A stretch of 64,000 bases of DNA from Candidatus Actinomarina sp. (GTDB taxonomy: Bacteria > Actinomycetota > Acidimicrobiia > Actinomarinales > Actinomarinaceae), in assembly GCA_038147085.1 (NCBI GenBank), contig JAYQSV010000001.1, forward strand, positions 485,983 through 549,982. The letters are read 5' to 3'. Of the stretch, positions 2,989 through 56,202 are shown in pieces. The first letter of the stretch is position 1. Each line of letters begins with the position of its first letter. Under the pieces are notes generated by a model. It did no database searches. It saw only the letters and a list, made by a program, of their open reading frames with translations, and was not told where the DNA came from. The position numbers and the translations under genes were made by a program.

Positions 2989-2989
2989 T

Positions 2990-3330
2990 TGTTCAGTGAA
3001 AATATAAGCCGGATTCTGTTTGTGTTAAACACAAGATAATCATCCATCTTGCATATTTGTTACCAAATATGTCTAGCTACCTACCCGCAATTTTTAGTCG
3101 AGCAAACTAATTGCTTTTTGGTATTGCTCCGAGAGGGGTTTACAAGCTAACTTAATCACTTAAGCTACTGGTAGTCTCTTACACTACCTTTTCACCCTTG
3201 CTTACTAAGTAAGCGGTTTATTTTCTGTTGCACTTTCCGTCAATTTCTTGCCTGGGAGTTACCCAGCTCTCTGCTCTTTGGAGTCCGGACTTTCCTCGAT
3301 AAATCGCGATTATCCATTTCACCTAATTAG
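2990..3330 (-). ncRNA. rnpB: RNase P RNA, bacterial type A
   Basis: Minus strand carries GAGGAAAGUCCGGACUCC (P4 5' strand), AGUGCAACAGAAA, CAAGGGUGAAAAGGUAGUGUAAGAGACUACC, GUAAACCCCUCUCGGAGCAAUACCAAA and ACAGAAUCCGGCUUAU (P4 3' strand) in the canonical order. No ORF, and locally higher GC. Ends are approximate, within about 10 nt. Confidence 0.85.
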
Positions 3331-25466: not shown

Positions 25467-26000
25467 CTAGTATATATTAATTTTATCTTCTATTATTTCT
25501 TGTATTTCGCAATGGTTTGGGCGGAAATCATTAAACTCTTCATGACCTAGATAAAAGTAGGAAAATGCTCTAATTGTATCTTGATGGGTTACAAAGATTG
25601 TATTTTCATAAAGATTATAAATTTTATGAACTCTTTCATAAACCTCATTTAATTTTTCACTAACGTTATTTAAATCTAGTTTTTTAATTTTAAAGTTTTT
25701 TGTTTTAGAAATTTCATTGAATGTTAGACCTACCCAGTTTATAGGACCCTGCCACTCAGTAATGTATGTTGAATACTCAATTTCAACATTTAAAACACTA
25801 TTTATAATTGAAGATGTTTCTCTAGCTCTTAATAGTGGAGAGGATACAATTTTTTTAATATTGAAATTATTTTTTATTTTTAATGCAGCTATTTGAGCTT
25901 GCTCAATACCATTTTTACTTAAATGAAAACCAGGTATATTAGCGTATTGTATATTTTTATTATTTTCAACTTCGCCATGTCTTATAAATAAATTGGTCAT
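25467..26000 (-). CDS. Histidine phosphatase (phosphoglycerate mutase) family protein
   Basis: RHGE catalytic motif near the N-terminus and SSPLLRARET. Confidence 0.7.
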   Translation of the reverse strand: MTNLFIRHGEVENNKNIQYANIPGFHLSKNGIEQAQIAALKIKNNFNIKKIVSSPLLRARETSSIINSVLNVEIEYSTYITEWQGPINWVGLTFNEISKTKNFKIKKLDLNNVSEKLNEVYERVHKIYNLYENTIFVTHQDTIRAFSYFYLGHEEFNDFRPNHCEIQEIIEDKINIY

Positions 26001-26039
26001 AAATTTAGACTAACTCACTTATAATGTAATATTTAAACT

Positions 26040-26387
26040 ATGGGATTAAACAAAGAAGAAGAAGAAATTCTTAAGCAAATTGAAAAAGAATTAATGAAGG
26101 ATGATCCCAACCTAGCTAAAACTGTTGAGGACTCAACACTATCTAAATTTACAAGGACTAGAGCAGTGTTCTCTTCTGTGATCTTTATTATTGGATTATT
26201 AACAATGTTTAGTACATATATTATTGAACCTGCAATTGCAATAGTTGGTTTTTCAGTAATGGCTTTGTCAGCATATGTATTTGTTTACAACACCCGAGCA
26301 TTGCTTAAAGCTGAAAATATAAACGAATGGAATTTTAAACAAGTAATTAAAATTTTAAGAAACAAAGATACTTCTAGACAAAAATAA
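26040..26387 (+). CDS. DUF3040-family membrane protein
   Basis: N-terminal helix with EEEILKQIEKEL..DDPNLA, then two TM helices. The family is largely actinobacterial and is often found upstream of the dcw cluster. Confidence 0.6.
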   Translation: MGLNKEEEEILKQIEKELMKDDPNLAKTVEDSTLSKFTRTRAVFSSVIFIIGLLTMFSTYIIEPAIAIVGFSVMALSAYVFVYNTRALLKAENINEWNFKQVIKILRNKDTSRQK

Positions 26388-26434
26388 AATTATAAATTAG
26401 ATTTAAATTACATCATTTTTTTTGGGAGTAAGGT

Positions 26435-26926
26435 TTGAAAAAAAATGCTTTTACATCAAAGCAAGCTTGTTATTTGTCAGGTTGTACATCGCATCAATTA
26501 AGATATTGGGATAAAGTTGGATTAGTTAGTCCATCAATCCAATCATCAGATGGTAAACCTGGTGTTCCTAAATTCTACTCTTTTAGAGACATAGTTGCAT
26601 TAAGGGTCATTAAAACACTTTTAGATAATGGCATGAGCATACAAAGAGTTAGAAGAGCATGGAAATATTTAAGCAAAAATGGAGATTTAGTTAAGCATCT
26701 ATCAGAAGTTAAGTTAATGTCTGATGGTAATACAATTTATTCTGTTCAAGAAAATGAGGTTTTCGATGCTTTAAAAAATGGACAACTTACATTTTTTGAA
26801 ACTATCGATAGTATCACTCAAGATGTAAAAGAAGATGTTTCAAAATTTGAACTAGATAAAGAACGTTTTCTTAATTTATTAACAAGAGTTGAAGAAGACG
26901 TACTAAGTCAACAACTTGAAGCCTAA
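26435..26926 (+). CDS. MerR-family HTH transcriptional regulator
   Basis: TSKQACYLSGCTSHQLRYWDKVGLV helix-turn-helix. TTG start with GGGAG Shine-Dalgarno 7 nt upstream. Confidence 0.6.
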   Translation: MKKNAFTSKQACYLSGCTSHQLRYWDKVGLVSPSIQSSDGKPGVPKFYSFRDIVALRVIKTLLDNGMSIQRVRRAWKYLSKNGDLVKHLSEVKLMSDGNTIYSVQENEVFDALKNGQLTFFETIDSITQDVKEDVSKFELDKERFLNLLTRVEEDVLSQQLEA

Positions 26927-26953
26927 TCAAATAAACAACTTTCGAGGTGTGTT

Positions 26954-27457
26954 ATTTCAAATAATAGAACTTTAATTCTAAATTCGACTTTTCAACCACT
27001 TGCAGTTGTAAGTCATCAAAGAGCTATAACCTTACTTTTTAATAATAAAATCAATTCATTACAAGATTCTGATTTATATCTCTCTTCAGTAAATCGAAAA
27101 ATTTATATTCCGAAAGTAGCAATTTTAAAATATTTTGTAAAAGCTCCATATATCAGAAGAGTTGCATTAACAAAAGAAAATGTTTTCATAAGAGATAATT
27201 ACTTGTGCCAATATTGTGGTGAAAATGCTGAATCGATAGATCATGTAACACCAAAGTCAAAAGGAGGTTCACATGAGTGGTCAAATGTAGTTGCGTGTTG
27301 TAAAAAATGTAACTTGATCAAAGCTGATAAATTTATAAAACATACAAATTTAAATTTAAAAAACACACCTTTTCCACCTAAAGGAAATTTTTGGATTAAA
27401 ACTATTATTGGCAATAATCCTGACCCATCCTGGGAAGTATATCTAGAAACAGCATAA
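26954..27457 (+). CDS. HNH endonuclease (actinobacterial ~170-aa family), start codon non-canonical
   Basis: CQYCGENAESIDHVTPKSKGGSHEWSNVVACCKKCNLIKAD HNH/zinc motif. N-terminal domain TLILNSTFQPLAVVS is in the same open frame. No ATG/GTG/TTG occurs between the upstream stop (26924..26926) and residue 93, so ATT at 26954 after GAGGTG (26944..26949) is proposed as the start. Confidence 0.6.
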   Translation: MSNNRTLILNSTFQPLAVVSHQRAITLLFNNKINSLQDSDLYLSSVNRKIYIPKVAILKYFVKAPYIRRVALTKENVFIRDNYLCQYCGENAESIDHVTPKSKGGSHEWSNVVACCKKCNLIKADKFIKHTNLNLKNTPFPPKGNFWIKTIIGNNPDPSWEVYLETA

Positions 27458-27477
27458 AAAATTTTTTTCTTTTTGTG

Positions 27478-27506
27478 TTGCAATGTGGGATATTATGTCA
27501 TATAAT
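27478..27506 (+). promoter_or_regulatory. Putative sigma-70/SigA-type promoter of the dcw cluster: TTGCAA-17 bp-TATAAT
   Basis: -35 at 27478..27483, -10 at 27501..27506. Flanked by GTGTT (27475), GTGGG (27485) and GTGGT (27515) repeats phased at 10 and 30 bp, which are MraZ-box-like. Confidence 0.4.
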
Positions 27507-27542
27507 GTCAGAAAGTGGTTCAAGGCACGAAAGGCGGATAAA

Positions 27543-27968
27543 GTGTTCCTTGGTGAGTTTCAACACACAATGGATTCTAAAGGGAGGGTGGTAATACCAT
27601 CTAAGTTTAGAGACGAGCTTCAACAGGGCTGTGTAGTCACCAAGGGACAAGATAACTGTCTACAAATTCTTACTAAAAAAAATTGGAATATTGAAGCTGA
27701 AAGAATGGCTTCTCTACCGTCAACAGATAAAACATCAAGACAACTAAGAAGAGCTTTATTTAGCGGTGCAATAGATGTAAAAATTGATACTGCCGGTAGA
27801 GTTCAGATTCCCGAAAACCTAAGAAATTATAGTGGAATAGAAATAAATGATGAGGTTACAGTAACAGGATCTGGTCCAGTAGTTGAAGTTTGGTCTACTC
27901 GTAATTGGAAAAAAATTCAAAATGAAGCAGATCAAGCTTTTGCGAATATTAATGAAGTGAAAGGATAG
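27543..27968 (+). CDS. mraZ: Transcriptional regulator MraZ
   Basis: VFLGEFQHTMDSKGRVVIP plus a second SpoVT/AbrB-like repeat. Start set at GTG 27543 because the ORF-track start lies inside the predicted promoter. Confidence 0.8.
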   Translation: MFLGEFQHTMDSKGRVVIPSKFRDELQQGCVVTKGQDNCLQILTKKNWNIEAERMASLPSTDKTSRQLRRALFSGAIDVKIDTAGRVQIPENLRNYSGIEINDEVTVTGSGPVVEVWSTRNWKKIQNEADQAFANINEVKG

Positions 27969-56120: not shown

Positions 56121-56202
56121 TACCCGGAGGGGGAGTCGAACCCCCACATCCGAAGATACTGGATTTTGAATCCAGCGCGTCTGCCAATTCCGCCATCCGG
56201 GC
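56121..56202 (-). tRNA. tRNA-Leu (anticodon CAA)
   Basis: Reverse complement GCCCGGATGGCGGAATTGGCAGACGCGCTGGATTCAAAATCCAGTATCTTCGGATGTGGGGGTTCGACTCCCCCTCCGGGTA. Has D-arm, anticodon loop UUCAAAA, long variable arm and GGTTCGA T-loop. CCA is not encoded. Confidence 0.85.

Follow-up and report, generated by a model that had tools for sequence, protein, structure and literature searches.

Probable AUU initiation of a conserved HNH endonuclease gene in Candidatus Actinomarina

In Escherichia coli, infC (encoding initiation factor IF3) and pcnB are the only genes with confirmed AUU starts, and in one reporter system of that organism AUU initiates at about 1–2 % of the AUG level (bioRxiv 10.1101/063800); in another E. 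coli system, AUU output was 6–8 times below that of AUG (PMC3592434). At the thrS–infC junction, which reads UAA GGU AUU, approximately half of the initiation has been attributed to re-initiation (PMC3592434). mRNAs with AUU starts are described as poor competitors, above all in the cold and under nutrient limitation (PMC5499595). Furthermore, non-AUG starts are associated with stronger Shine–Dalgarno (SD) sequences, and the switch from AUG to AUU was recorded for only 1 in 61,358 ancestral AUG starts, compared with 1 in 5,080 when the ancestral codon was GUG (PMC5622118). Here we describe an HNH endonuclease gene of the uncultured marine bacterium Candidatus Actinomarina sp. that has no canonical start codon in its first half and lies directly downstream of a MerR-family regulator gene, in a stretch of 64,000 nucleotides (nt) of assembly GCA_038147085.1 (contig JAYQSV010000001.1, positions 485,983–549,982; hereafter the window, to which all positions refer). 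We consider, with a probability of roughly 85 %, that this gene is intact, maintained by selection and translated from a near-cognate AUU codon at position 26954. The preprint 'Actinomarina, resolved' mentions neither start codons nor HNH.

The start-less HNH frame and its orthologous loci

The frame in which the MerR gene is read remains open after the MerR stop, from 26927 to a TAA at 27455–27457, for a total of 176 codons. It reads SNKQLSRCV-I-SNNRTLILNSTFQPLAVVS..., which includes the conserved block RTLILNSTFQPL, and continues into CQYC...DH...N...CKKC. The first ATG, GTG or TTG of this frame is a TTG at 27203 (codon 93 of 176), which specifies a Leu directly before the first CxxC. Its start-less leader, at 92 codons, exceeds that of any other of the 80 window frames that stay open for ≥ 100 codons; the next five leaders (45–73 codons) are all antisense to much longer open reading frames (ORFs), and no other start-less gene was found in the window. 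As no other window gene needs one, a non-canonical start would be specific to the HNH gene and not a sign of genome recoding. These observations bear out an earlier sequence-only reading of the window, which had noted the frame open after the MerR TAA, the lack of ATG, GTG or TTG until codon 93, the presence of an N-terminal block with a Cx2C...DH...N...Cx2C core, and a GAGGTG at 26944–26949 that is followed, after a gap of 4 nt, by an ATT in the same frame (26954).

This GAGGTG (26944..26949, + strand, as for all features of the locus) is the putative SD sequence, with a conserved core, GAGGT (26944–26948), positioned 5 nt before the ATT. The proposed ATT (AUU) initiation codon occupies 26954..26956, in frame, and is fixed in all 21 sequences discussed below, whilst the MerR–HNH spacer of 27 nt (26927..26953) would be untranslated, and outside the window's lineage its frame is interrupted by stops. 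The proposed coding sequence thus spans 26954..27457 and would specify 167 amino acids (aa) with fMet at the ATT (MSNNRTLILNSTFQPL...YLETA*), the product with its (M)SNNR N-terminus reading MSNNRTLILNSTFQPLAVVSHQR. Mechanistically, GAGGU(G) would pair with the CCUC core of the 16S rRNA 3′ tail and position the 30S subunit with the AUU, 5 nt downstream, in the P site; initiator fMet-tRNA would then decode AUU with a third-position mismatch, yielding a protein that begins Met-Ser-Asn-Asn-Arg-Thr-Leu-Ile-Leu-Asn. By analogy with infC, pcnB and reporter data from E. coli, the output would be a small fraction of that from AUG and subject to discrimination by IF3, although the strong SD may partly offset the weak codon. 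Ribosomes that terminate at the MerR stop, 27 nt upstream, might contribute additional re-initiation.

In order to place this junction in context, as the sequence-only reading had suggested, we compared it with orthologous loci. A scan of a genome collection returned 35 Actinomarinales-type loci, as well as one distant, non-syntenic match (L036). The HNH start was ATG or GTG in 34 of the 35, situated 6–9 codons before the [RK]TLILN block and 20–40 nt past the MerR stop. The exception, L001 (a metagenome-assembled genome (MAG) labelled casp15, 87 % amino-acid identity), has no canonical start and carries GAGGT-aaata-ATT in its place. The longer block, [RK]TLILNSTFQPL, was kept in 34 of the 35 loci with synonymous variation, the variant in L027 being RTLILNATYQPL. 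Further members of the ATT clade were added from the contig that bears the nearest protein in the database (L037), from a metagenome scan that used a pattern downstream of the start, and hence was not biased towards ATT (L038–L041), and from contigs carrying public truncated calls (L050–L063). In the window and in 20 contigs from other public records or samples (21/21), representing at least four sublineages, the junction was GAGGT-N5-ATT-TCN. The ATT is therefore fixed in this clade, and extra stop codons separate the two genes in its sister sublineages.

The same collection of contigs speaks to technical artefacts. The window junction was identical in L057, L059, L062 and L063, and differed by one spacer single nucleotide polymorphism (SNP) in L056, L058, L060 and L061. 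As it is reproduced in independent public assemblies from several samples, the read error that had earlier been raised for this junction does not account for it. A programmed frameshift from one of two out-of-frame GTG triplets, at 26947 or 26949, might also be entertained, given that both overlap the SD in the window; these triplets are, however, absent in the L037-type (gaggtaagta) and L001-type (gaggtaaata) junctions, and both short GTG frames encounter stops within 6–9 codons. As the GTG codons are not conserved in the sister lineages we rejected this candidate, and the probability that either sequencing or assembly error or frameshifting explains the locus is practically negligible.

Stop-codon read-through, which would produce a MerR–HNH fusion and spare the HNH moiety any initiation of its own, is suggested by the window itself, where the two genes share a frame with no stop from 26927 to 27457. 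The spacers of the sister sublineages are not compatible with such an arrangement. That of the L037-type reads TAA TCA AAT ATA CAA CTG CCG AGG TAA GTA ATT and that of the L001-type TAA TCC AAA GAT TAA GGA TTG AGG TAA ATA ATT, such that one or two further in-frame TAA codons, respectively, follow the MerR stop, the last of them two codons before the ATT. Between this last stop and the conserved block there remain only GTA or ATA, the ATT and three poorly conserved codons. As TAA GTA/ATA ATT closes the frame, the ATT is the sole codon upstream of the RTLILN block at which translation could start in the sisters, and no other codon shared there is known to serve bacteria as a start. The window frame is continuous with MerR only because its lineage has TGT where the sisters have TAA; this continuity is thus a lineage-specific coincidence. 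Nor is the spacer conserved as protein (SNKQLSRCV, SNIQLPR*V and SKD*GLR*I), and in a second ATT clade (P0082, described below) MerR and HNH are out of frame. Furthermore, no significant RNA structure was found downstream of the MerR stop: four folds at the junction gave z-scores of −1.9 to +1.2 with no shared structure, and a weak pairing between the MerR 3′ end and the SD was no better than in shuffled sequences. The MerR stop is, in addition, a UAA followed by U, a context of efficient termination in E. coli that again counts against read-through. We therefore give this explanation a very slim chance.

Initiation at the AUU is, by comparison, consistent with what the spacer does conserve. 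Its length is 27 nt in all sublineages, yet outside GAGGT only 9–10 of 22 positions match L001. The 5 nt between SD and ATT likewise vary (gtgtt, aagta, aaata) around the invariant GAGGT, which stands at a functional distance for a ribosome-binding site, 5 nt upstream of the ATT, within an otherwise variable spacer. Using a published definition of the core SD (AGGA, GGAG or GAGG in the −20 to −5 window; PMC5622118), we detected one in only 1 of 34 orthologues with ATG or GTG starts (L002) vs all seven of the ATT-clade loci scored (GAGG at −10). Across the window, in a crude gene set, an SD 4-mer precedes 11 of 68 genes and a 5-mer 2 of 68. Because SD motifs are this rare across the window, a conserved GAGGT at fixed spacing is unusual for the organism, and the motif is a derived partner of the ATT. 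As a separate observation, the two adjacent genes, merR (TTG, GGGAG) and the HNH gene (ATT, GAGGTG), each pair a weak start codon with a rare clear SD.

As the ATT of the window's clade lies 2–3 codons downstream of the ATG or GTG of other clades, a simple point change does not account for its origin, in contrast to the ATT of clade P0082. In the GTG-start clade (GTG GGT AAY ...; L006, L009, L014, L016, L020, L021 and L025), the codon at −4 relative to KTLILN is variously GTG, ATG, ATA, ATT or TTA. Given that the homologous codon toggles in this manner, the ancestor of the window's clade may already have had the ATT and subsequently lost an upstream GTG.

Selection, predicted protein and public gene calls

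To assess whether the start-less frame is maintained we used Nei–Gojobori ratios of non-synonymous to synonymous substitution (dN/dS). Between the three main sublineages, dN/dS was 0.08 for the whole gene and 0.05–0.11 for codons 1–83, which precede the first canonical start; dS was 0.34 when the window was compared with L037 and 0.91 when it was compared with L001. A dN/dS of ∼0.08 at a dS of up to ∼0.9 indicates that the ATT state is old and that the gene has been kept under purifying selection. Within the clade, codons 5–17 (RTLILNSTFQPLA) show only synonymous differences (CTA/TTA, TCG/TCT, ACT/ACA and CAA/CAG), and the codons directly after the start region, AGA-ACT-TTA, are invariant. The 167-codon frame is open in all six full-length clade sequences that were translated, and the junction was read in all 21. 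Moreover, an alignment of 43 family members has 25 invariant columns, and the window protein retains every one of them, including C85, C88, D96, H97, N111, C116, C119 and N120.

These data bear directly on the notion of a pseudogene, in which the start codon was recently lost and the sequence is decaying. The lack of a canonical start, and the fact that gene callers return only fragments, would fit such a state. A dN/dS of ∼0.08 that includes the 83 start-less codons, over synonymous distances of up to ∼0.9 between clade members, does not; nor do the frame left open in 6/6 full-length sequences, the 25 invariant residues retained, or a genome described as highly streamlined (PMC7771536). Decay is accordingly highly improbable, and the suggestion of an ATG lost together with other inactivating changes is likewise not supported. 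From the three options that the sequence-only reading had left side by side, AUU initiation is thus the one that persists, with GAGGT-N5-ATT fixed in 21 sequences; read-through is contradicted by the in-frame stops of the sisters, and a recent nonsense or start mutation by the low dN/dS.

The predicted product is, by profile and motif, a bona fide HNH-family member. It matched HNH_5 (PF14279) with 46.7 bits (cut-off 27.5) and HNH (PF01844) with 41.8 bits (cut-off 21.4), both matches spanning residues 94–136 of the 176-codon frame. The HNH (beta-beta-alpha-Me) nuclease core, encoded at 27206..27334, comprises two predicted zinc-binding CxxC pairs and the catalytic D-H and N. In an AlphaFold2 model (mean predicted local distance difference test (pLDDT) score 87), the protein has two domains: a compact N-terminal one (beta-beta-alpha-beta-beta) that opens with RTLIL as its first strand, and the HNH core. 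This alpha/beta domain (26966..27127; residues 5–58, containing b1 RTLIL, b2, a1, b3 and b4; pLDDT 83–94) is encoded entirely upstream of any canonical start. Sequence and fold matches in the PDB (the IscB/Cas9 HNH, 4h9d and EcoKMcrA 6ghc) cover the HNH core only, with query-normalized template modelling (TM) scores of ≤ 0.36, and for the N-terminal alpha/beta domain of ∼75 residues one Foldseek search of the PDB gave no match. The name 'McrA' that IMG attaches to the protein is an automatic label.

Public annotations present the gene differently, and raise the question of whether translation is confined to an internal canonical start (TTG 27203 in the window, others in the sisters), leaving a truncated HNH core and an untranslated upstream frame. 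Such codons do exist downstream, and pipelines have selected them to give products of 84, 111, 132 or 149 aa. In the window genome the public call is an 84-aa ORF that begins at the first canonical codon, the TTG (27203..27457), and lacks the whole N-terminal domain. Its exact sequence is present on 26 contigs (NCBI, ENA and Logan), the longest ∼1.01 Mb; the 90 % cluster (P0001/P0121) lists 15 members, every one a truncated call of 84, 111, 132 or 149 aa, and the truncated calls together occur on > 200 contigs (NCBI, ENA, JGI and Logan). A collection of 15 billion proteins does not contain the 167-aa product. The internal codons behind these calls nevertheless differ between sublineages, with none conserved, and no SD precedes TTG 27203. 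Codons 1–83 are, in addition, selected as strongly as the remainder and encode a compact domain with a confident model and order-wide conservation. A start confined to an internal codon is therefore improbable, and the 84-aa call is best regarded as a proposed truncation artefact; as pipelines are limited to ATG, GTG and TTG, the truncation would be systematic.

A second ATT clade and the route to AUU

The ATT state is found in the same gene family a second time. A further clade, P0082 (139-aa call), is represented by at least 24 contigs, some of them from TARA samples. Four of its contigs were inspected (L042–L045), and all read TAG ACA ATT AGA ACA TTA ATA CTC AAC, that is, stop-T-I-R-T-L-I-L-N (positions 2408–2428 of L042 for the start region). 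Its sister, P0081 (L048/L049), reads ACA ATG AGA ACT CTA ATT CTC AAC, with ATG at the codon that is ATT in P0082. Between the two, codons 2–25 contain 14.5 synonymous and 3.5 non-synonymous changes (dN 0.087, synonymous sites saturated). In a neighbour-joining protein tree, clades with ATG or GTG starts separate both ATT clades, within the limited resolution that one short protein affords. Taken together, these sequences indicate that the ATT start has apparently arisen independently a second time. In P0082 the HNH gene is out of frame with the MerR stop (frame difference 1), and a 4-codon mini-ORF in frame with the HNH gene, ATG AAA AGT GAG TAG, ends 3 nt before the ATT. No core SD was found upstream of the P0082 ATT, only GTGAG.

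The mini-ORF is pertinent to the manner in which ribosomes might reach the AUU. It recalls the UAA GGU AUU of the thrS–infC junction (PMC3592434), and the distance from MerR stop to ATT in the window's clade is exactly 27 nt in all sublineages despite sequence divergence. Both features suggest that the AUU could be used mainly by re-initiation after the MerR stop (translational coupling), as opposed to de novo initiation driven by the SD. Against this stand the clade-specific GAGGT, conserved at the right spacing, which argues that SD pairing matters, and E. coli reporters without an SD, in which re-initiation drops ∼tenfold at a 20-nt gap (PMC3592434). Re-initiation as the main route is therefore rather unlikely, but the two routes to AUU are not mutually exclusive.

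In either case, expression of the nuclease would be expected to be low, as AUU is weak and subject to IF3 discrimination, and the AUU start suggests that such low expression is tolerated or even favoured. It is tempting to extend this to a view in which selection, as opposed to drift, has made the AUU start a throttle on the expression of a conserved HNH nuclease with a housekeeping role in the ultra-small marine Actinomarinales, one that has arisen at least twice independently, once with a new strong SD in an SD-poor genome, that may respond to IF3 or growth state as in infC, and that is coupled to translation of MerR. We advance this only tentatively, and regard it as a possibility on the doubtful side.

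Several points weigh against initiation at the ATT as we have set it out. The start is deduced from sequence, and for both AUU efficiency and the role of IF3 we extrapolate from E. coli data. As the window contains no 16S rRNA, the anti-SD is assumed from the universal CCUC core. Compensation by the SD would not be general, because the second ATT clade lacks a core SD. Lastly, as the AGA-ACT-TTA codons never vary within the window's clade, the case for their translation there rests on other clades and on the structure model. Even so, a clade-fixed AUU, a derived SD and a second AUU state within one family would make this a clear example from nature of an SD compensating for a weak start codon, in an AT-rich genome described as streamlined. 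Its unusual aspects are the rarity of the AUG-to-AUU switch, its recurrence in one family and the derivation of an SD in an SD-poor genome.

Gene neighbourhood and comparison with known systems

The top genome matches of the region are MAGs and single-cell genomes of Candidatus Actinomarina or Actinomarinales, and the genome around the locus is AT-rich, with a GC content of 25–34 % in 4-kb windows. The gene order is DUF3040 (26040–26387), MerR (26435–26926) and HNH, followed by MraZ, RsmH and the remaining dcw genes; the order DUF3040–MerR–HNH–MraZ–RsmH is common to every contig whose gene calls were inspected, and in every Actinomarinales locus examined the HNH gene adjoins MerR and precedes the mraZ/dcw cluster. 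In the Acidimicrobiales (L046/L047; GCA_026002915.1), a 43 %-identical HNH homologue lies three genes upstream of mraZ/rsmH without a MerR neighbour, from which the link between HNH and dcw may predate the MerR–HNH pairing.

The MerR-family regulator gene (26435..26926) encodes 163 aa from a TTG start with GGGAG 5 nt upstream, and ends in a TAA at 26924–26926. Its product matched MerR_1 (PF13411) with 55.7 bits (cut-off 21.6) and carries an N-terminal MerR-type helix-turn-helix profile; it reached no NCBIfam equivalog (HspR, 31 bits vs a cut-off of 105). merR and the HNH gene are probably co-transcribed. A scan of 25900–27700 revealed no terminator-like site between the two, and the promoter-like sites in this interval were not above shuffled expectation. 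The best promoter-like site of the region, TTGCAA-17-TATAAT (27478–27506), has 10/12 matches. The mraZ ORF is listed at 27483–27968 (ATG 27483, 161 aa), but residue 22 is the one that corresponds to position 2 of the Pfam MraZ profile, so that the true start is probably GTG 27543 (M-FLGEF...); an AAGG sits 8 nt upstream of this GTG. With mraZ starting there, the TTGCAA-17-TATAAT site would fall in an 85-nt HNH–mraZ spacer and is a plausible promoter of the dcw cluster. An Rfam scan of the window detected only RNase P RNA (bacterial class A, 278 bits; 2989–3325, − strand) and one tRNA (56121–56202, − strand), both away from the locus, and no 16S; rRNA was not found in the window although GC content climbs to 33–34 % at 12–20 kb.

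Amongst described systems, infC and pcnB are the closest. As in both, a conserved and otherwise normal gene would begin with AUU behind an SD, and low efficiency is to be expected; as in infC, whose initiation is IF3-sensitive, the AUU follows the stop of an upstream cistron, in infC by a few nt. The locus differs in that it concerns an HNH nuclease family in another phylum, with an ATT inferred from its sequence context, and in that the ATT state is clade-specific and not family-wide, most orthologues having ATG or GTG. Moreover, the AUU of infC has a demonstrated autoregulatory role, IF3 acting against its own start, and no such loop is evident for a nuclease. In pairing a weaker start codon with a stronger, better conserved SD, the window's clade resembles the trend reported by Belinky, Rogozin and Koonin in 2017 (PMC5622118). 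Their statistics concern GUG and UUG across genomes, whereas we describe one family with two apparently independent AUU states, only one of which gained an SD, in an SD-poor, AT-rich genome described as streamlined. The protein itself resembles small stand-alone HNH endonucleases (HNH_5 PF14279/HNH PF01844; Gme HNH, 4h9d) in its beta-beta-alpha-Me core, D-H, N and two CxxC pairs, and differs in an N-terminal alpha/beta domain that lies outside these matches, which cover the core only. As AUU is an accepted, if rare, bacterial start, the HNH gene joins the class represented by infC and pcnB and calls for no new mechanism.

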